This document shows positions 12,237 to 56,200 of a DNA stretch of 64,000 nt, one piece after another; positions within the stretch are counted from its first letter, which is position 1, and each line of letters opens with the position of its first letter. A model generated the notes under the pieces. The model saw nothing but the letters and a program-made list of their open reading frames with translations, was not told the DNA's origin and did no database searches. Made by a program: the position numbers and the translations under genes. The stretch is from Candidatus Methanomethylicia archaeon (GTDB lineage Archaea > Thermoproteota > Methanomethylicia > Culexarchaeales > Culexarchaeaceae), in contig JAVYVS010000003.1 of the NCBI GenBank assembly GCA_038727515.1, positions 152,345 to 216,344 of the forward strand, given 5' to 3'.

Positions 12237-12944
12237 ATGTCGTTAAATAGGGGAGATTTCATACTCGTGAATTTTACAGCAAAAGTAAAGGATACTGAAG
12301 AGATAATTGATACAACAATTGAAGATGTGGCAAAGGAGGGAAAAATATACCAAGAAAATAAAGTTTATGGACCAAGGTTAATAATAATTGGGGAAGGACA
12401 ATTATTAAAGAAGTTAGAAGAAGAAATATTGTCAATGAACGTAGGGGATAGAAAAATCATTGAATTGAAACCGGAAGAAGCATTTGGATATAGAGATCCA
12501 TCAAAAGTAAGGATAATACCAGCAAGGGAATTAACTAGTAAGGGTATAACACCTAAAACTGGAACAAGAATTGAAACGGATGAGGGGGTTGCAATAGTTA
12601 GAAGTATAGGAGGGGGGAGAGTTGTAATAGACTTAAATCATCCATTAGCGGGAAAAACATTGGTGTACGATGTTCATATAATTAAGAAGATAGAAGAAGA
12701 AAACGAAAAAATATTATTACTAATTCAGCGGAGATTACCATCCGTAGATGTATCAAAATTTAATATAGCAATTAATAACGGAACTCTCGTAATAAGAATC
12801 CCAGCAGAAATATACTTACTAGAGGGACTTCAATACATAAAACGAGGTATAGTTAATGATATAGAAAGATTCTTTAAAAATATAAGAAAAGTTGAAATAG
12901 TTGAAACTTACGAGATTAAACATGAGAACAGAGAAGAGAAGTAG
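12237..12944 (+). CDS. slyD: FKBP-type peptidyl-prolyl isomerase (long SlyD type)
   Basis: PEEAFG.RD, DLNHPLAGK. Confidence 0.9.
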   Translation: MSLNRGDFILVNFTAKVKDTEEIIDTTIEDVAKEGKIYQENKVYGPRLIIIGEGQLLKKLEEEILSMNVGDRKIIELKPEEAFGYRDPSKVRIIPARELTSKGITPKTGTRIETDEGVAIVRSIGGGRVVIDLNHPLAGKTLVYDVHIIKKIEEENEKILLLIQRRLPSVDVSKFNIAINNGTLVIRIPAEIYLLEGLQYIKRGIVNDIERFFKNIRKVEIVETYEIKHENREEK

Positions 12945-12964
12945 ATTTTAAATTAGGAACTTTA

Positions 12965-13426
12965 TTAAATGATTGTAACCAAAACTTTAGCTAGATTTTT
13001 ACCATTTTGACATTTTATATGGTGTAATATCTTTTCAATCTTGATCTTGTCATTTTTAAATAGACCTAGGGGTGCACAAAGTGATTTATTTAAGCAAGTT
13101 GTTTTACATTCAATAGGGTTATAAGATACGATTACTCCTTCTAGCGCAATTCTACGTTCTACGAAAATTTCTATTGGTGATAATTTAACTTCAACTACTG
13201 ACACGAAGTCATTTAATAATTTACAAAAATGTTTTTTATCCCTAACTTTAATTATTTCATATATTCGCCCTTGTTCTAGTCTTTCAACACAAACCTTTCT
13301 TAAATTACATGTTAAACATATTTCACTAGGTTTTTCAAAAACAAACTTATAACCATTTTTAGCAACATTACTATTAACTAATGTTATTATAGTATTATCC
13401 TTTGATAACCTCTGTTTCAGCTGCAA
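12965..13426 (-). CDS. UPF0179 family protein
   Basis: ITLV...A..G..F, CxxCxLxxxC, L..GR.YEI..VR; true start may be downstream. Confidence 0.8.
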   Translation of the reverse strand: MQLKQRLSKDNTIITLVNSNVAKNGYKFVFEKPSEICLTCNLRKVCVERLEQGRIYEIIKVRDKKHFCKLLNDFVSVVEVKLSPIEIFVERRIALEGVIVSYNPIECKTTCLNKSLCAPLGLFKNDKIKIEKILHHIKCQNGKNLAKVLVTII

Positions 13427-14468
13427 TTTTTTCAGCCTCCCTCCAATTTAATTCTTTTTCATTCAATATTGTGTACCTATCTTTACGTATTTCTTTAGCT
13501 TTAATTAAAGCTTCTATTATATCATTCTCTTCTACCCCTAGTTCTTTAGCATTTGTTGGAGCTCCAATTATTGATAACGTATTTTTTATTTTTCTCCAGT
13601 TACCACCATGAAGATACATCATAATTATTGTACCCACGCCACATTGTTCACCATGTAAACCCGGTTTTTTCGCTATTATATCAAGTGCATGGCTAAACAT
13701 ATGTTCAGACCCACTACATGGTCTACTACTACCAGCAATGCACATAGCTACACCACAACTTATTAATGCTTCAACAATTGTTCTAATACTTTCATCCATT
13801 AGATGTCGTATCCTCTTGGCATGTTTTACTACGAGATTTGCTGACATTAAAGCAAGTGATGCAGCGTATTCACCATAATATTCTCCTAAACGTTGTTTAG
13901 CTAATTTCCAATCTTTAATAGATGTAAATTTTGCAATGATGTCACCACAACCACTTGCTATTAGCTTATATGGAGCTTTAACTATTATGTTTAAATCAGC
14001 TATTATTGATATAGGTGGATTAACAGTTATTGAGGTTCTACTGGATGTATTTCTAATGGAGGCTATAGGTGATGATATCCCATCGTGACTTGCAGCAGTT
14101 GGTACACTTATATATGGAAGGTTATTTTTAAAGGCTATTATTTTAGTTGCATCAATAACTTTACCGCCTCCAACACCAATTATAATATCGATATTACTTA
14201 TTTTTTGAAATTCTTCAGATATTCTATTAATTTCGTTGATAGAAGATTCTTCTACAGTATAAAGTTCGCTTTCAAACCCGTTAGCACTTAAAATGTCATA
14301 TACTTTTTCTCCAGCTATATTTTTAACATGTGGGCCAGTTAATATAATAACTTTATTCTTTACCTTTAATTCGTTGCATATTTCCCGTATATTGTTTATG
14401 ACATTTTTACCTACAAGCACTTTTTGAGGCAAAGTGATTTTATGTTGTTCCAAAGCACATGCCCTCAT
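13395..14468 (-). CDS. egsA: glycerol-1-phosphate dehydrogenase
   Basis: GGGKVID, PTAASHDGI, SRPCSGSEH, LHGEQ. Confidence 0.95.
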   Translation of the reverse strand: MRACALEQHKITLPQKVLVGKNVINNIREICNELKVKNKVIILTGPHVKNIAGEKVYDILSANGFESELYTVEESSINEINRISEEFQKISNIDIIIGVGGGKVIDATKIIAFKNNLPYISVPTAASHDGISSPIASIRNTSSRTSITVNPPISIIADLNIIVKAPYKLIASGCGDIIAKFTSIKDWKLAKQRLGEYYGEYAASLALMSANLVVKHAKRIRHLMDESIRTIVEALISCGVAMCIAGSSRPCSGSEHMFSHALDIIAKKPGLHGEQCGVGTIIMMYLHGGNWRKIKNTLSIIGAPTNAKELGVEENDIIEALIKAKEIRKDRYTILNEKELNWREAEKIAAETEVIKG

Positions 14469-19864: not shown

Positions 19865-20572
19865 ATGAGAAAAATTGTTGTAAGAATAGGGGGACATTTA
19901 TTATTCTCTTCAAAGAATAAGATAAATGTTAATTTAATTAATGAATTTTCCAGAATACTTAAAAAAGCTTGTGACGAAGGAAATATTATACGGTTAGTTA
20001 TTGGTGGCGGTGATTATGCAAGGGAATATATAAGTGCAGCTGAACGCATAAATGCATCAGAATTCGAGAAGGATTATCTAGCGATATTAATAACACGTGC
20101 CAACGCGTTTTTATTTAAATTGGCACTTAAAGAGTACGCATATGACTATATCCCACAAACATTAGATGAAATATTGAGAGTAAATAGTTTAACAAATAAG
20201 ATAATAGTTTGTGGGGGATTAACCCCAGCTCAATCTACTATGAGTGTCGCTGCCACCATCGCAGAAGCAATAAAAGCAGATTTAATAATAAATGCTACTA
20301 ATGTGGAGGGAGTATATTCAAAAGATCCTAAAGTATATCATGATGCAAAACTCTTAAAGAAAGTATCTACACAAGAATTAAAAAACATCCTAAAAGACCA
20401 ACAAACAAAAGCAGGGTATTACGAACTTATAGACCAACAAGCAATAAATATAATTGAAAGAGCAAAAATACCATTAAGAGTTATCAATGGTGAAAATGCT
20501 GAGAATATAATTAGAGTAATCAATGGTGAAGACATAGGAACTTTAGTAGTACCAAAGAATAACTGTTCCTAA
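19865..20572 (+). CDS. pyrH: UMP kinase
   Basis: GGG..AR.YI, D.LAI..TR.NA, TNVEGVYSKDP. Confidence 0.92.
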   Translation: MRKIVVRIGGHLLFSSKNKINVNLINEFSRILKKACDEGNIIRLVIGGGDYAREYISAAERINASEFEKDYLAILITRANAFLFKLALKEYAYDYIPQTLDEILRVNSLTNKIIVCGGLTPAQSTMSVAATIAEAIKADLIINATNVEGVYSKDPKVYHDAKLLKKVSTQELKNILKDQQTKAGYYELIDQQAINIIERAKIPLRVINGENAENIIRVINGEDIGTLVVPKNNCS

Positions 20573-20729
20573 AGAGAGTAAAATAAATATATAAGAAAAT
20601 TGGTAATAATATTTGGCCCACACTAAAAAGGCGGCGTCGACTAGACAAGGGGTTAAACCCCTCGTATGAATAGTCGGCCTCCAAGTGTGGGTAAACTTAT
20701 GTGGACCTAAAATTTCTTTTAGGTCTGAA

Positions 20730-22326
<1,597 letters not shown>

Positions 22327-22436
22327 AGATGCAATCTGAAGAGTAAACTCTTCAGATGAAGGGTGGAGGGATATTTATCCTAATGACTACCATGCATAGT
22401 TAGGTGCGTGACTTGGTATAGTTTACAGGATGTGTT

Positions 22437-25495
<3,059 letters not shown>

Positions 25496-25561
25496 ACATC
25501 CTGTAAACTATACCAAACGAAACGCCTAACTATGCATGGTGTCTATTTTAAAATGGGGGGA

Positions 25562-25904
25562 ATGTAGGGTAAGTAGCGAGGCGGGTTCCGAGTAAAACTG
25601 GCGACAGTTTTACTTGAGGAAGCCCACCCCCACTGTGGCGCCGCAACCCCATAAGGGGTAGGGCGAAAGCCCTAGCTATGGCACAGAAATAACACCCCTT
25701 CTGGTTATATGAGGATGATACACGCACCAAGCCTTGCAAAAGGCTGAATTAAGCTGTTGACGAGACCAGAAGAGTGGTTGAAAAAGCCAGGCTTGCGGGG
25801 GCAAGGCCAAAAAGAGCTGATGAGCTGCCACACGAAGCTCAGGTAGGCCGCTTAGACGAATCCCGCCATAAACAAAAGGTGGGCTATCGCTACTTACCCT
25901 ACAT
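25562..25904 (+). ncRNA. rnpB: RNase P RNA
   Basis: GAGGAAGCCCACC...AACAAAAGGTGGGCTA (P4), ACAGAAA, GGGGCAAG; terminal stem ATGTAGGGTAAGTAGCGA/TCGCTACTTACCCTACAT; mature ends may be shorter. Confidence 0.93.
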
Positions 25905-26421
25905 AACCCAAAAATTGTTTACGAAACTCGTTTTCTAAATTCATTAATTCAATACTATTTTTTGAATTAATATAACATTTAATTAATTTTTCATTTATTG
26001 ACATAAAGTTTAATCCCCACTTAAAAAGTGATAATAATTTCACGGCTAAATTCATTTCATCTAACAAAATCAGTGCTGCTGCAAATGCCTCAACGCTGCT
26101 TAACATATATGGTTTCGCATAATTAACAGGGTTAGCTGCAAAAAATAATGGTAAACGTCTACTATTGTAAAGGTCTTTGAAATTATTTAAGATATCTTGA
26201 TTCTTCCAAGAACAATCAATGACTACTAATCCCCCGTTTCTCACAATAGGTTTATCTAGTGTACTTAATATTTTTGTGGAAAATGGATTCAAAATAATAG
26301 AATTTTTATACACATTTTTCAATGATTTAATAAATTTTACAAACCCAAATTTTTTAAGTTTTATTGAAGTACATTTTCGAGGATCGCATTCATGAAGATG
26401 CCAAACATATAAAGGGAACAT
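25894..26421 (-). CDS. tsr3: rRNA aminocarboxypropyltransferase Tsr3 (DUF367)
   Basis: CDPRKCTS.KL, IDCSW, R.LP...AANPVNY, LSSVEA, F.WG..F. Confidence 0.93.
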   Translation of the reverse strand: MFPLYVWHLHECDPRKCTSIKLKKFGFVKFIKSLKNVYKNSIILNPFSTKILSTLDKPIVRNGGLVVIDCSWKNQDILNNFKDLYNSRRLPLFFAANPVNYAKPYMLSSVEAFAAALILLDEMNLAVKLLSLFKWGLNFMSINEKLIKCYINSKNSIELMNLENEFRKQFLGYVG

Positions 26422-47296: not shown

Positions 47297-47785
47297 CTAT
47301 TTAAGCTGTTTTTCAATGTCTTCTAATTCTAATATTTTTTCACAAAATACACATCGTAGTCTTATTGGATTTTCGGAAATCACTTTAAATCTTGATACTA
47401 TTGGTTCTTTTTCGTCTCTGGTTACACATGATGTATTTATGCATTTTAATATCCCAACAACTTCATCTGGTATCTTTACCTTATATTTTTTAACAACTTC
47501 AAAATCTTTTATTATGTTTATAGTAGCAGTAGGTGCTATTAATGCTATTTTATTAACTTCATCATCCGTTAGTTCTCTTCCTTCTATTTTCACTATATCC
47601 TTTTTCCCGTATTTTTTACTTGGAACATTACATGCTACTGTTACTGTAAACCCTTCTTTGCAAGTGATTCCCAAAACTCTTAGCACACTTAATGAATAAC
47701 CAGCAGGTATGTGATCTATAACTGTGCCTTCTTTTATCTTCTCAACCTTTAGTTCCTGTTTTCTCAAAAGTCCCCCTCCCAACAT
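47297..47785 (-). CDS. pyrI: aspartate carbamoyltransferase regulatory chain
   Basis: GTVIDHIPAG, KKDIVKIE, C.N..C...C..C; true start may be TTG at 47767. Confidence 0.95.
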   Translation of the reverse strand: MLGGGLLRKQELKVEKIKEGTVIDHIPAGYSLSVLRVLGITCKEGFTVTVACNVPSKKYGKKDIVKIEGRELTDDEVNKIALIAPTATINIIKDFEVVKKYKVKIPDEVVGILKCINTSCVTRDEKEPIVSRFKVISENPIRLRCVFCEKILELEDIEKQLK

Positions 47786-47862: not shown

Positions 47863-48798
47863 GTGTTTATGAGTCTCAGAGGACGTGATTTCATAGACGT
47901 CAGAGATTTCAACAGAAATCATTTTGATTATTTATTTAGACTGGCTGATAAAATGGAACCTTTTGCAAGATCAAGTTGTCCCCTATTAAAAGACAAAATA
48001 CTAGCTCTACTCTTTTTTGAACCTAGTACAAGAACTAAGTTAAGTTTCGAAGCTGCTATGTTACGTTTAGGGGGGAATGTCATTGGTTTCTCTGAACCTT
48101 CTTCCTCATCAGTAGCCAAAGGTGAAAGTTTGGCAGATACAGTACGTGTTGTTGAAAATTATAGTGATTGTATAGTTATAAGACATCCATTAGAGGGGGC
48201 AGCAAAATTAGCAGCCGACTTCGCAAAAATACCTGTGATAAATGCTGGATCTGGAGCATTATCACATCCCACGCAAGCACTATTAGATGTTTATACTATT
48301 TATAGAGAAAAGGGCAAGATAGATGGACTTAATATAGCTCTCATTGGAGATTTAAAATATGGACGTACTGTGCATTCATTAGCATATGCACTTGCATTCT
48401 ATGATGTGAACATATACTTTGTTTCTCCTCCAGAATTACGTATGCGTCGTGAAATAATAGAAGACTTAAAAAAGATTGGTGTAAAGTTTAAAGAATATTA
48501 TGAATTGACAAATGAAATTTTAAATGAAATTGATGTTTTATACGTAACAAGAATACAAAAAGAACGTTTTATAGATCCAAATGAATATCAAAAAGTTAAA
48601 AATGCATATAAGATTACTGCTGAAACCTTAAAAAATTGTAAATCTGATCTTATTGTGCTTCATCCTTTGCCACGAGTAGATGAATTAGATTATAGCGTGG
48701 ATTTTTCACCTAAAGCTAAGTATTTTGTACAAACTTATTATGGTCTCCTAATAAGAATGGCATTACTCTATGCAATATTAGGGGAAGGGTCGTTATAA
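47863..48798 (+). CDS. pyrB: aspartate carbamoyltransferase catalytic chain
   Basis: FFEPSTRT, HPTQALLD, GDLKYGRTVHSL, HPLPR. Confidence 0.96.
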   Translation: MFMSLRGRDFIDVRDFNRNHFDYLFRLADKMEPFARSSCPLLKDKILALLFFEPSTRTKLSFEAAMLRLGGNVIGFSEPSSSSVAKGESLADTVRVVENYSDCIVIRHPLEGAAKLAADFAKIPVINAGSGALSHPTQALLDVYTIYREKGKIDGLNIALIGDLKYGRTVHSLAYALAFYDVNIYFVSPPELRMRREIIEDLKKIGVKFKEYYELTNEILNEIDVLYVTRIQKERFIDPNEYQKVKNAYKITAETLKNCKSDLIVLHPLPRVDELDYSVDFSPKAKYFVQTYYGLLIRMALLYAILGEGSL

Positions 48799-48842: not shown

Positions 48843-51056
48843 TTATAATAATGAATACTCTTCAATAATTTTTAAATTCTCTTCCCTCCTATACACATTT
48901 AACTTCTTAGAATAATATACTAAACTGGACAAAGAACTCCCACAAAAATTACATTTTTCACGTTTCCCATAAATGAATGACTTACACTTCCTACAATACG
49001 TATAATCTCTTGTAAATGTAAAAATAGCTAGTTTCTTTTCATTCATTAATCTTTTTAGATACTCATACAAATCATTGATTGATAATATTGGTTCTTTAAT
49101 GTTAATTTTAAAATAATGCCCTCCAAGAAATTTTTTATGAAATATAGACTCAACTTCAATTCTTTTGTTTAATGGCACATTTTCTTCATATGGAATTATT
49201 GTATTAAATGTATACCCACTTACCTTTCTATCAATTTTTTCTTCTATTACTTTAAATCCATAACGGATTCCATCTGATATTAAAAATCTTCTGCCTGCAT
49301 CTTCGATACTGACTTCAGTTAGACGTATATACCCTTTTTCCTTTATTATTGCCGTAATTTCATCAACAATTTTTTTAGAAAGATTCATTACGTTTTTCGA
49401 TTCCTGTATGTATTTTCCTGTATGTATTTTTAATGCTTCATATAGTCCTACTAATCCAATATTCCCTAATAGCACATCAGTAGGAGAGTACTTCTCTATG
49501 GAGTTTTTAGTAGATAGGAATGGCAATATTCCTTTACTTGTTCTTTCCATTATTCTATTTCTCCCTTCTTCCAAAGCTTTTATACTTATATCAATACTTT
49601 CATTTATTTTTGAAAAGAATCTTCCATCATCTCCTTTAGCTTCTAAGGCTATTCTGGGCAGATTAATTAAAATAGTTCCTGCAACGCAACTATTGCTTAC
49701 TAACGATATATTCCTTTCTAATCTTGTAAGATCCCAGCAGTAGCTTGCTATATTATTATTTTCCCAATCTATATTCACTATAACTGGTACACACCATTTA
49801 AGAATCAATTCACATACTCTACTAATTTCATTTTGAACATTTGAATCATTAAGTGAATGTGAATCCAATTTTATTATAGGTAAAGGTGTGAGAAAAGGTC
49901 TTTTAGCATCATCCCCATCTATGAATACTTCAACAAAAGCTCTAAATAGCAATAATTTTTCCTCAAATAATTCTTCTTTTAAGCTTTTATCGAGTCGCAA
50001 TCCTATAGCAAATGGTTGTGGGTTTCCCATAAAATCCAGTATTTGATTTAAATGTACTATTGCACACTTTATCTTCTTTAATATTTCATCATATTTCATG
50101 TTGCCAATAAATGTTGCCAACATCACGTTTATGTCATCAATAACTTGTCCTACTGAGATATAATTTCTCATAATATGGATTATCTTAACTATTTTCTCTA
50201 AAGCTTCATCTAAACTTTTACTTTTTTTTATAGTTGGTATAAAGCTTTCTAAATTTTCAAAATTCAATTCACTTTCTATAACCCACGAACTGTCATAATG
50301 GATACTTTCAGGTATAATTCCAAAATATGGTAAACTGTTTATATTTATTAAACCAGAAATATGTGCATCGGAAATCTCTCTTGGTAATCCTCTAATTAAC
50401 ATATATTCACTTATCACCGCGCTTCCTGACCTGAGATAAAGAGTTAAAGGCGGCATTAATGTTTGATTAATTTCACTAATCGTTTTTCTAACGTCGTAAA
50501 CTGGTAATCCTAACCTTGTCATAGCATGTCTATAGTCTTCTAACCCTCGCTCTAGTAGTATAGAATTTACTATTTCTCTTATGAGAGGTGCAGTTAAATA
50601 TTTTATGTTACTTCTAAGAATTCTTTCCTCTGCTTCTTCTGCTATTTCTTCAGCAATGGATCTTGGGGCTTCTGCTTCTCTTATTATTGCTTCTACTATT
50701 TTCCTTTTTTCAAATGGTTCCATAGTTAAATTTGAAGTTCTTACTAAAATTTTTTTATTTTCCCTCATTACATTTTCTTCCAAATTTTTTAGTAACAACG
50801 CTATTCCAATTCCCAATTCTGTTAATTCATATCTTCCTTTTTTCTCCTTTTCTTTTATAATACCTGCGTCAATCAACAATTTTAAATGATGTGTAAATTT
50901 TCCAGAATCAATTTTAGGGTTCATTTCGAGTTCTAACATTAAATCTGTAAAACTGTTTTCCTTTGCATTATATAAGTTCAATATTATTTTTCTACGAATA
51001 GGATTTCCCACAGCTTTCAAGACTTTGTTTAAGTTTTCTTCATATATCTTATGCAT
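48843..51056 (-). CDS. ArsR-HTH + ATP-cone + degenerate class III ribonucleotide reductase (NrdD-like) fusion
   Basis: NPIRRKII...GKFTHHLK HTH; VRTS...LTAPLIRE ATP-cone; AHISG.I, INLPRIA, IGLVGL.E, GGH, CxxC-CxxC; no RITGY-type glycyl-radical motif. Confidence 0.8.
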   Translation of the reverse strand: MHKIYEENLNKVLKAVGNPIRRKIILNLYNAKENSFTDLMLELEMNPKIDSGKFTHHLKLLIDAGIIKEKEKKGRYELTELGIGIALLLKNLEENVMRENKKILVRTSNLTMEPFEKRKIVEAIIREAEAPRSIAEEIAEEAEERILRSNIKYLTAPLIREIVNSILLERGLEDYRHAMTRLGLPVYDVRKTISEINQTLMPPLTLYLRSGSAVISEYMLIRGLPREISDAHISGLININSLPYFGIIPESIHYDSSWVIESELNFENLESFIPTIKKSKSLDEALEKIVKIIHIMRNYISVGQVIDDINVMLATFIGNMKYDEILKKIKCAIVHLNQILDFMGNPQPFAIGLRLDKSLKEELFEEKLLLFRAFVEVFIDGDDAKRPFLTPLPIIKLDSHSLNDSNVQNEISRVCELILKWCVPVIVNIDWENNNIASYCWDLTRLERNISLVSNSCVAGTILINLPRIALEAKGDDGRFFSKINESIDISIKALEEGRNRIMERTSKGILPFLSTKNSIEKYSPTDVLLGNIGLVGLYEALKIHTGKYIQESKNVMNLSKKIVDEITAIIKEKGYIRLTEVSIEDAGRRFLISDGIRYGFKVIEEKIDRKVSGYTFNTIIPYEENVPLNKRIEVESIFHKKFLGGHYFKINIKEPILSINDLYEYLKRLMNEKKLAIFTFTRDYTYCRKCKSFIYGKREKCNFCGSSLSSLVYYSKKLNVYRREENLKIIEEYSLL

Positions 51057-51118
51057 ACACAGTAATATCTTGTTAGATGCTGCTATATTACTGTTATCAT
51101 TGCAATAAACTTTTATTT

Positions 51119-51920: not shown

Positions 51921-52009
51921 GGGGCCGTAGGCTAGCTTGGAAGGCTGCGGGGTTAGGAGTATCCCCCCATTGGGTCCCCGTGACCGGAGTTCAAATCTCC
52001 GCGGCCCCA
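51921..52009 (+). tRNA. tRNA-Pro(TGG) with 16-nt non-canonical intron at 33/34 (51955-51970)
   Basis: GGGGCCG/CGGCCCC; removing AGGAGTATCCCCCCAT gives loop TT-TGG-GT; BHB with GGGG/CCCC helix. Confidence 0.88.
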
Positions 52010-52088
52010 CATTATTTATGTTATTGTAAAGTATGAAAACAAATCTTAAAACAAGCAAATAAAGATAAATTTTTCACACAATATAAAT

Positions 52089-53837: not shown

Positions 53838-53911
53838 GCCTCGGTAGCTCAGCTCGGTAGAGCGGCGGCCTCGTAAGCCGTTGGTCGCGGGTTCAAATCC
53901 CGCCCGAGGCT
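53838..53911 (+). tRNA. tRNA-Thr(CGT)
   Basis: GCCTCGG/CCGAGGC-T; loop CT-CGT-AA. Confidence 0.95.
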
Positions 53912-55162: not shown

Positions 55163-56200
55163 ATGCCCTTCGAGTTTGAAGGCATCAAAATTGATAGAAA
55201 AATAGTTAAAATTTCCCAATCTGATAACATTCCCCTCATAGGTTGCATTGCATTTGGAGTAATAGATAGAGGTACCAATATAATTCAAATTCGTCCTATT
55301 ACACTTTGCCCTTTATCCTGTATTTTTTGTTCTACAGACGCTGGACCTAAATCAACTAAAAGACAATGTGAATTTATAGTCGAATTAGAATATTTAATTC
55401 AATACGTTAAACAGGTGCTTAAGTACAAAGGATGTAGTGGCATTGAAGCTCATATAGATACTGTAGGTGATCCACTAACTTATCCCAGCATCGTAGATCT
55501 GGTTAATAAACTTAGTGATTTACAAGGCATAAATGTAATTTCCATGCAAACTCATGGGTTTCTATTAAATGAAAAATTAATTGATGAGCTAGAAAGTGCA
55601 GGTCTTTCTAGAATTAACTTATCAATTGATGCATTAGACTCTGAACTCGCTAAATACTTATCTTCTACTGAGAATTATAATATAGAACGTATTTTATCAC
55701 TTGCAGAATATATTTCTAACTCTAAGATTGATTTGCTTATCGCACCAGTATGGGTTCCACCATTAAATACTTATGAAATTCCACGAATCATTGAGTATGC
55801 TAAGAAAATTGGTGCCGGTAAAAAATGGCCACCACTAGGTATACAAAAATACGAGGGTCATAAATATGGTAGAAAACCAAAAGGGGTCCATCCCATCTCA
55901 TGGAAGAAGTTTCATGAACAACTAGAAGCTTGGGAAAAATTATTCAATGTAAAATTGAAATTGCATCCGAAAGATTTCGGAATATTTAAAGCTCCTAAGC
56001 TTCCATACGCCTTTAGAAAGTATGAGAAAATTAAAGTGAAAACTGTGGAGTTAGGCTTTTTTAAAGGACAAAAACTTGCTGTTGCTAGAGATAGAGCAAT
56101 TACTATAATAAATGCAAATAATATACCAATAGAATCTAAAGTATATGTCAGAATACTAAGAATAAAAGACAACATTATTATAGCTGAACCATCTTTCTAA
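55163..56200 (+). CDS. radical SAM protein with C-terminal TRAM-like domain (COG2100-like)
   Basis: PLIG..AFG.IDRGTN, CPLSCIFC, SMQTHG. Confidence 0.85.
   Translation: MPFEFEGIKIDRKIVKISQSDNIPLIGCIAFGVIDRGTNIIQIRPITLCPLSCIFCSTDAGPKSTKRQCEFIVELEYLIQYVKQVLKYKGCSGIEAHIDTVGDPLTYPSIVDLVNKLSDLQGINVISMQTHGFLLNEKLIDELESAGLSRINLSIDALDSELAKYLSSTENYNIERILSLAEYISNSKIDLLIAPVWVPPLNTYEIPRIIEYAKKIGAGKKWPPLGIQKYEGHKYGRKPKGVHPISWKKFHEQLEAWEKLFNVKLKLHPKDFGIFKAPKLPYAFRKYEKIKVKTVELGFFKGQKLAVARDRAITIINANNIPIESKVYVRILRIKDNIIIAEPSF

Follow-up and report, generated by a model that had tools for sequence, protein, structure and literature searches.

A conserved archaeal fusion of a winged helix-turn-helix domain to a catalytically dead class III ribonucleotide reductase, a candidate ATP/dATP-responsive transcription regulator

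Why would an archaeon keep a ribonucleotide reductase (RNR) that carries a DNA-binding head and lacks the residues of its own chemistry? The question is raised by the gene P0001, on the minus strand (48843–51056) of a 64,000-nucleotide (nt) stretch of contig JAVYVS010000003.1 from a Candidatus Methanomethylicia archaeon (contig positions 152,345–216,344). We call this whole stretch the window and give coordinates as window positions. The gene is an uninterrupted open reading frame (ORF) of 737 codons, and a preliminary description, made from the DNA letters alone, had divided it into a winged helix-turn-helix (wHTH) domain, an ATP-cone, a barrel of the class III RNR type (NrdD) and a zinc ribbon. 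Pfam searches, alignments and structure models all bear out this layout. We conclude that P0001 probably regulates the transcription of nucleotide-metabolism genes in response to ATP/dATP, as an analogue and not a homologue of bacterial NrdR, because it joins an ArsR/SmtB-fold head to an ATP-cone that is its best-conserved part and has as neighbours RNR genes of two classes or pyrBI.

Reading from the N terminus, the 737-residue protein (amino acids, aa) begins with an ArsR/SmtB-type wHTH at aa 1–100 (50757–51056), recognized by Pfam, structure model and fold match. It continues with an ATP-cone at aa 104–185 (50502–50747), an NrdD-type barrel at aa 186–680 (49017–50501) in which alignments and a motif census find no catalytic or substrate-holding residues, and a Cys4 zinc ribbon (C688, C691, C702 and C705; 48927–49016) that aligns with the zinc-ribbon Cys residues of E. 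coli NrdD and is invariant in 120/120 relatives. The protein ends in what the alignments show to be a degenerate remnant of the glycyl-radical loop, YSKKLNVY (aa 715–722), with a short tail and the stop codon (48843–48926). In Pfam, DUF7347 matches at aa 11–85 and, together with HTH_45 and HTH_5, spans aa 11–94; the ATP-cone model matches at aa 104–177 (33.7 bits against a cut-off of 25.8) and NRDD (PF13597) at aa 208–708 (215 bits). The NCBIfam NrdD equivalog scores 179 bits, so far under its cut-off of 326 that we regard P0001 as a divergent member of the NrdD family. An AlphaFold2 model of the full protein, built on 92 relatives, reached a mean predicted local distance difference test (pLDDT) score of 88.5 and a predicted template modelling score of 0.77. 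Its best fold matches in Foldseek are class III RNRs (E values 1e-22 to 1e-24), among them the ATP-cone-bearing structures 9dca (S. thermophilus), 8p2s (P. copri) and 4u3e.

Set against the solved class III enzymes (T4 1h7a, T. maritima 4coi and 4u3e, P. copri 8p2s and S. thermophilus 9dca), P0001 is homologous over aa 100–710 and shares with them the ATP-cone, the ten-stranded barrel fold, the NLPR motif and the Cys4 zinc ribbon. It differs in lacking the radical Gly-Tyr, the thiyl Cys, the bottom Cys, the NxN flap and HxHD, in adding an N-terminal ArsR-type wHTH, and in belonging to a family that persists in genomes with no match to the activase NrdG over its cut-off. The clade of P0001 is a trimmed form of this family, without the DWELDTLRTG block before NLPR and with a gap of ~17 residues at aa ~355–362 relative to Bathyarchaeal members.

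The catalytic positions were placed by alignment with E. coli NrdD (C175, C384 and G681), with the genome's own canonical NrdD and with other archaeal NrdDs, and the motif census set 120 family members against 39 catalytic NrdDs. The bottom Cys (E. coli C175, T4 C79) is Ser251 in P0001, which reads IPESIH where catalytic enzymes have RPFCQD; in that column, 39/39 catalytic NrdDs have Cys, as does 1/120 family members. The finger-loop thiyl Cys (E. coli C384) becomes Thr444, with DLTRL in place of the canonical QCCRL or the GCRSF of E. coli, an assignment uncertain by the one or two residues by which the register of this loop varies between alignments. Four residues ahead of the thiyl position lies Cys440 (SYCWDLTRL), conserved only in the closest clade and replaced by Gly in sister lineages. 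Asn720 takes the place of the radical Gly and Val721 that of the conserved Tyr after it (SKKLNVY against catalytic SRVTGYY). Across the 120 family members the Gly column reads Ala in 36, Asn in 20, Gly in 17 and Pro in 9, and is absent from 20. The preliminary description had quoted PESIHYD and YSKKLNVY as evidence that the N-terminal cysteine region lacks its Cys and that the radical Gly is missing; both strings are present exactly (aa 249–255 and 715–722), and the alignment, which shows no Gly or Cys at the catalytic positions, confirms both losses.

The residues that hold the substrate have gone too. The NxN flap, which holds the substrate base, and HxHD, which holds its triphosphate, were defined on P. 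copri structures (PMC11226230); in P0001 the first changes from ENANLQ to EINQTL (aa 195–200) and the second from HIHD to NINS (aa 238–241). Both are invariant or nearly so in the 39 catalytic NrdDs; across the family the flap is degenerate and HxHD takes the form HxxN. NLPR is retained (aa 465–468), its N, P and R invariant in 120/120, and N310 of the barrel is invariant in the family. The full catalytic set is kept by none of the 120 relatives, bottom Cys and Gly occur together in none, and 72 lack all three catalytic residues. Of 293 columns that are at least 95% conserved in catalytic NrdDs, 61 still have the same residue in 80% or more of the family, and 151 have it in less than 20%. With the radical Gly, both active-site Cys residues, NxN and HxHD lost, P0001 is, to judge from its sequence, catalytically dead as an RNR.

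We looked for a Gly in the proper alignment, a hidden frameshift and orthologues that keep the motif beside a decaying copy, and found none of them. No RxxGY occurs in the other reading frames or beyond the P0001 stop codon, and orthologues from several genomes share YSK(K/N)(L/V)N(V/T)Y. Since these orthologues carry the same degenerate motif, the loss of Gly is not a sequencing error, and a frameshift or sequencing error that conceals the motif is ruled out. Elsewhere in the family the loop is often missing altogether: many members stop before it, and Bathyarchaeal forms end right after ...FSRV. Members of a small Bathyarchaeal subgroup retain GCR(L/F) in the finger loop, three of them together with the Gly; this subgroup looks like a frozen intermediate.

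The ATP-cone has a very different history from that of the active site. The V, R and S of VRTS (aa 105–108) and the L, R and E of APLIRE (aa 156–161) are invariant in 120/120 family members, and the remaining positions of the two motifs are kept in 117–119 of the 120. Both motifs are also present in archaeal catalytic NrdDs, and the roof of the cone reads VRTS in P0001 as against VxKR in E. coli NrdD. The cone has thus been kept almost unchanged, and we predict that it binds nucleotides.

The head, in turn, is assigned from its modelled structure. Modelled alone, aa 1–100 reach a pLDDT of 94.4 and superpose full-length on CzrA, SmtB, CadC, HlyU, BigR and PagR (template modelling scores 0.68–0.74, root mean square deviation ~2–2.5 Å), at 20–24% identity to ArsR/SmtB repressors. 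ArsR-type Pfam and NCBIfam matches lie near or under their cut-offs, and the NCBIfam model for Sso10a-type chromatin proteins matches weakly (17.9 bits, under a cut-off of 60). The model makes the head an ArsR/SmtB-type winged HTH with the entire a1-a2-a3-aR-wing-a5 fold, and DNA binding is predicted; R21, G52, H57, Y76 and G82 are invariant across the family. Helices a3 (aa 36–42) and a5 (aa 80–100), read from the sequence, contain no His or Cys, and the known metal- or thiol-sensing sites of ArsR/SmtB repressors are therefore absent from the head. In contrast to those repressors, helix a5 of P0001 continues directly into the ATP-cone and a 500-aa barrel, so that the signal would come from a different module. 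A homodimer prediction for aa 1–185 (wHTH plus cone) scored 0.02 against a mark of 0.42 and gave no answer on dimerization.

This architecture is old and widespread. More than 600 relatives came up in a sequence search, and the top 120 are nearly all wHTH plus ATP-cone plus NRDD proteins of 710–790 aa; the named sources among these 120 are Methanomethylicia, Nezhaarchaeota, Bathyarchaeia, 'Geothermarchaeota' and Asgard archaea (Loki-, Hel-, Frey- and Jord-). After clustering at 50% identity, well over half of 150 listed representatives start within the HTH. Among 40 close-relative genomes, 27 have a full-length orthologue (34–57% identity) together with a catalytic NrdD, and in an even sample of the phylum a full-length member is found in ~118 of 401 genomes (about 30%), counted as matches scoring over ~630 bits. 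In a maximum-likelihood tree, a single branch sets 42/42 sampled family members, joined by two HTH-less dead forms, apart from the other sequences (SH-aLRT 95–99), and Asgard sequences are basal inside the family, with a root that rests on E. coli alone. The family is one clade, with a single old origin in an archaeal NrdD lineage. HTH-less degenerate NrdDs (P0321 and P0327; L058:4200–6065, in genome G044) occupy basal branches of the HTH family in this tree; one such form, encoded directly downstream of a family gene, reads SRSIAFY against catalytic SRITGYY, and another ends ...VRLPARFTPL.

Purifying selection weighs most heavily on head and cone. Against an 89%-identical orthologue, the ratio of nonsynonymous to synonymous substitution rates (dN/dS) is 0.13 for the whole gene, 0.09 for the wHTH, 0.07 for the ATP-cone, 0.14 for the barrel and 0.19 for the tail; against a 68%-identical orthologue it is 0.17. 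In one and the same set of genomes, catalytic NrdDs are 78–90% identical where the paralogues are 41–57% identical; the paralogue evolves faster than the catalytic copy, yet under constraint. The check that the preliminary description had proposed, namely whether relatives keep both the HTH fusion and the catalytic loss, came out in its favour: both are retained under purifying selection, and simple decay is rejected by dN/dS.

How, then, does the host make its deoxynucleotides? The assembly (1.59 Mb, 93.6% complete) has a second NRDD match (500 bits) on contig C1, a protein of 752 aa with every catalytic motif present, and an NrdG activase converges on its gene (TIGR02495, 149 bits against a cut-off of 131). 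Directly preceding this catalytic nrdD is a gene for a glutaredoxin/NrdH-like protein of 86 aa that carries CPLC (L001:3745–4010, minus strand; G000:C1 ~645.3–645.5 kb), conserved in relatives. Such a neighbour presumably fits a thiol-reductant-dependent rather than a formate-dependent NrdD subtype. We found no class I or class II RNR large subunit in the host genome. The separate intact RNR that the preliminary description had suggested looking for is thus there, as nrdH-nrdD plus nrdG on another contig, and with this complete set elsewhere in the genome P0001 is not needed for the synthesis of deoxynucleoside triphosphates (dNTPs). The earlier statement that the window holds no nrdG also stands: its sole radical-SAM match scores 22 bits to the NrdG model, so far under the cut-off that by this measure it is no RNR activase. 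That match is a generic radical-SAM ORF of 345 aa (55163–56200, plus strand), and a radical-SAM gene of the same length lies near the orthologue in L050. P0001 and the genome's catalytic NrdD are 26% identical, and across genomes the family paralogue is 26–29% identical to its own-genome catalytic copy.

Five genomes that are 96–100% complete are especially informative. In these a family member is the sole NRDD match, a class I/II-type RNR is present, and no NrdG exceeds the TIGR02495 cut-off (best 69 bits against 131). A family member that lives without an NrdD partner argues against an obligatory heterodimer with NrdD. In two of the five the family gene is followed directly by the class I/II-type RNR gene; in G066 the RNR, with lgN, lgC and TSCPD domains, begins 159 bp past the family-gene stop on the same strand. 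Adjacency to an RNR gene persists in class II genomes and has therefore survived a change of RNR class.

The other recurrent neighbours belong to pyrimidine synthesis. In the window, pyrB (47863–48798, plus strand; Pfam OTCace_N and OTCace) converges on P0001 across a 44-bp gap, and pyrI (47297–47785, minus strand) is divergent from pyrB. On the other side, 62 bp upstream of P0001, lies P0002 (51119–51841, minus strand), which encodes a 240-aa HTH_3 protein (Pfam HTH_3 22.5 bits, at threshold). The preliminary description had placed the gene between a convergent pyrB and another HTH gene, as we find, and this layout is kept throughout the same order. For a wider survey we took 27 further GTDB families of the phylum, each represented by a single genome. 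In 15 of these families pyrB, pyrI or both lie within 8 kb of the family gene, mostly adjacent and convergent; in five the gene directly downstream is a second, HTH-less member of the NrdD family, and in three an HMGCS-thiolase-DUF35 operon lies directly upstream. The downstream HTH-less copies read RxTGYY in three cases (L068, L069 and L071) and are degenerate in L058, where the motif reads SIAFY, and in L070, where the protein stops within the zinc ribbon. The L070 protein (L070:10527–12398, G174) has no Gly domain, and an NrdG-like gene follows at 12939–13454; the ending could reflect truncation, a frameshift or the splitting of the gene. Individual gene orders vary on the same theme: family gene, glutaredoxin, nrdD in Bathyarchaeia CP060866; family gene, nrdD, pyrB on another public contig; the family gene with pyrB-pyrI directly downstream in Helarchaeota; and HMGCS-thiolase-DUF35 preceding the family gene in Lokiarchaeia and in one Methanomethylicota metagenome-assembled genome.

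P0002 itself consists of an N-terminal HTH_3 domain and a C-terminal domain of ~170 aa, and homologues with 44–51% identity occur at L032:6–644, L035:1976–2644, L054:13057–13722 and L073:11476–12117. In other Methanomethylicia and in Lokiarchaeia a P0002-like gene heads a same-strand cluster of HMG-CoA synthase, thiolase, DUF35 and the dead-RNR gene; in the host genome this mevalonate operon is missing from between P0002 and P0001. A third kind of mevalonate-pathway neighbour, an HMG-CoA reductase gene divergent from the family gene, occurs in G066 (L078:8811–10094).

The 62-bp gap between P0002 and P0001 contains a perfect 10-bp inverted repeat, ACAGTAATAT-N16-ATATTACTGT (51059–51094), that ends 2 nt before the ATG, and a TTTATT box lies ~50 nt upstream. 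The arms of the repeat are identical in the 89%-identical relative, where the spacer has changed, and the 68%-identical relative has two arm mismatches without compensation. Spacer drift together with non-compensated mismatches fits protein half-sites better than an RNA hairpin. In two relatives of genus g4 (L013 and L014) a 7-3-7 palindrome with the same core, AAGAGTAATATACTCTT, stands at the same place, and L015 retains only the GTAATATACTCTT part, its left arm having diverged. Arms of at least 10 arose in 8 of 5000 random 68-nt windows of the genome (0.16%) and in 10 of 3000 shuffles (0.3%). These observations weakly suggest that the repeat is a candidate autoregulatory operator. A genome-wide search for paired half-sites returned only noise, and the regions upstream of the family gene and of the class II RNR in G042 and G066, compared by eye, have no motif in common. 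As to expression, three hot-spring metatranscriptomes gave no reads on the gene at the sampled depth, which makes them no test of expression, and one sediment metatranscriptome gave three short contigs on the gene (94–100% identical) plus pieces of pyrB and P0002. The sediment contigs are compatible with transcription; DNA carry-over or a close relative could also explain them.

Taken together, we envision that a duplicated class III RNR became a one-component transcription regulator. P0001 would dimerize, as ArsR repressors and NrdD do, and its wHTH would bind inverted-repeat DNA. Binding of ATP or dATP at the cone would move the heads or change the oligomeric state, so that affinity for DNA would track the adenine (deoxy)nucleotide pool, and nucleotide binding at the remaining RNR allosteric sites may contribute. 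Its own promoter and the nucleotide-supply genes (RNR genes and pyrBI) would be the likely targets, and the scheme allows action either as a repressor or as an activator. We regard as possible, rather than probable, a bolder extension in which the family is an ancient archaeal master regulator of the supply of DNA precursors and arose before Asgard archaea and Thermoproteota separated. A complete RNR would then have turned into an allosteric sensor, with the cone, and perhaps the specificity site, reading ATP/dATP/dNTP pools and setting the transcription of RNR, whatever its class, and of pyrimidine synthesis, as a counterpart of NrdR invented independently, out of the very enzyme under its control.

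Bacterial NrdR, a repressor of RNR genes built from a zinc ribbon and an ATP-cone (PMC9110341, PMC12176259), is the natural point of comparison. P0001 resembles it in joining a DNA-binding module to an ATP-cone and in its genomic association with RNR genes, and we propose by analogy that here, too, the ATP/dATP state of the cone may set DNA binding. The DNA-binding domains themselves are unrelated, an ArsR/SmtB wHTH in one and a zinc ribbon in the other; P0001 is about five times larger, because the whole dead RNR body has been retained; and no NrdR-box-like repeated operator was found at the RNR promoters searched. The wHTH head and the lack of a motif in common with the nrdH upstream region place P0001 outside the NrdR family. 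The 'archaeal analogue of NrdR' of the preliminary description therefore holds as an analogy and, beyond the cone, fails as a homology.

Several observations weigh against a regulator of nucleotide genes. Adjacency to pyrB is mostly convergent, not the divergent or co-directional arrangement typical of a regulator and its target, and the host's catalytic nrdD sits on a different contig from P0001. In L058 and L071 a second NrdD-family gene lies between the family gene and pyrB; with such a copy in that position, the link to pyrB may be a legacy of an old nrdD-pyrB locus where a tandem duplication took place. The neighbourhood at large is a broadly conserved housekeeping one (HMGCS operon or mevalonate genes, NAC, PUA and V-ATPase). 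The half-site ACAGTAATAT, with up to two mismatches allowed, is absent upstream of nrdH, from the pyrI-pyrB intergenic region and from the gap 3' of pyrB, and in eight relatives the regions upstream of nrdH and of pyrB/pyrI, compared by eye, have no motif in common with the family-gene upstream region. Finally, the barrel, with its purifying selection (0.14) and its invariant N310 and NLPR, is predicted to do something more specific than serve as a scaffold.

Some of these points would suit a general DNA-associated sensor of ATP/dATP, chromatin-like or linked to replication and not specific to nucleotide genes. Such a protein would need no operator in common with nrd or pyr promoters, it would be at home in a housekeeping neighbourhood rather than a dedicated operon, and the head does have its weak similarity to Sso10a-type proteins. 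We nevertheless consider it unlikely, given the full-length match of the head to sequence-specific ArsR/SmtB repressors, the recurrence of RNR genes of two classes next to the family gene and the conserved inverted repeat at the gene's own start. The retained NrdD fold, modelled with high confidence, the presence of both copies in those 27 close relatives and the adjacency of the two genes in several lineages could instead point to a non-catalytic partner of the catalytic NrdD, a heterodimer in which P0001 would modulate or localize the enzyme and its HTH would tether the pair to DNA. We give this little credence: in the five near-complete genomes the family member has neither an NRDD partner nor an NrdG over the cut-off and is accompanied instead by a class I/II-type RNR, the identity to the own catalytic copy is low, and between genomes the two paralogues have diverged to very different degrees (41–57% against 78–90%).

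A barrel under selection could also mean that P0001 is still an enzyme, or a ligand-converting protein, with some other chemistry, its HTH serving autoregulation. BirA and PutA are known examples of bifunctional enzyme-repressors. The invariant N310 and NLPR, the intact zinc ribbon and the Bathyarchaeal subgroup with its GCR(L/F) loop, and in three members its Gly, would all be expected of such a protein. Yet so few of the columns conserved in catalytic NrdDs are kept (61 of 293, with 151 nearly abandoned), both motifs for the substrate triphosphate and base are gone, no conserved Cys pair is left, many members stop before the Gly loop and no activase was found in the genomes having only the dead copy; we judge a different chemistry quite improbable. 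As for a functionless product of decay, or an artefact of annotation or assembly, the missing catalytic residues and the faster evolution than the catalytic copy are what decay would produce, and the data on selection and conservation contradict it: an ORF that is intact and full-length in over 100 genomes of two archaeal phyla, dN/dS of 0.13–0.17, invariant residues that are the family's own and no frameshift hiding a motif make this explanation scarcely credible. A transcription regulator responsive to ATP/dATP is thus the reading that we prefer for P0001.

Database sources label the proteins of this family 'anaerobic ribonucleoside-triphosphate reductase' (NrdD). Annotated in this way they inflate metabolic reconstructions, and the five genomes described above would be wrongly credited with a class III RNR. 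Among the searchable papers on NrdD-HTH-ATP-cone fusions, RNR pseudoenzymes, DUF7347 and RNR evolution, none that we found describes the family, and the archaeal nrdD literature match that we did find concerns Tn7 attachment sites only. To our knowledge, the control of RNR and of dNTP pools in archaea is largely unknown, NrdR being essentially bacterial. The pseudo-RNR with its repressor head, conserved and widely distributed, is a candidate for such control in Methanomethylicia, Bathyarchaeia, Nezhaarchaeota and Asgard archaea, and if this proves true the family would clearly exemplify the reuse of a complex radical enzyme as the ligand-sensing module of a transcription factor.

Some features of the relatives and of the window stand apart from this argument. 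Seven catalytic NrdDs from Nezhaarchaeales and Bathyarchaeia (P0132, P0135, P0145, P0184, P0196, P0197 and P0223) are 900–1220 aa long and contain the intein domains PF14890 and PF14528; intein domains are among the Pfam matches of 0/120 listed members of the dead family. In the window, a tRNA-Ser(GGA) gene (51921–52010, plus strand) lies within the 247-bp gap upstream of P0002, on the strand opposite to that gene, and a tRNA-Thr(CGU) gene lies at 53838–53911 (plus strand). The segment at 20001–26000 has a G+C content of 50–56% against ~30% elsewhere and looks like the rRNA operon of a thermophile with an AT-rich genome.

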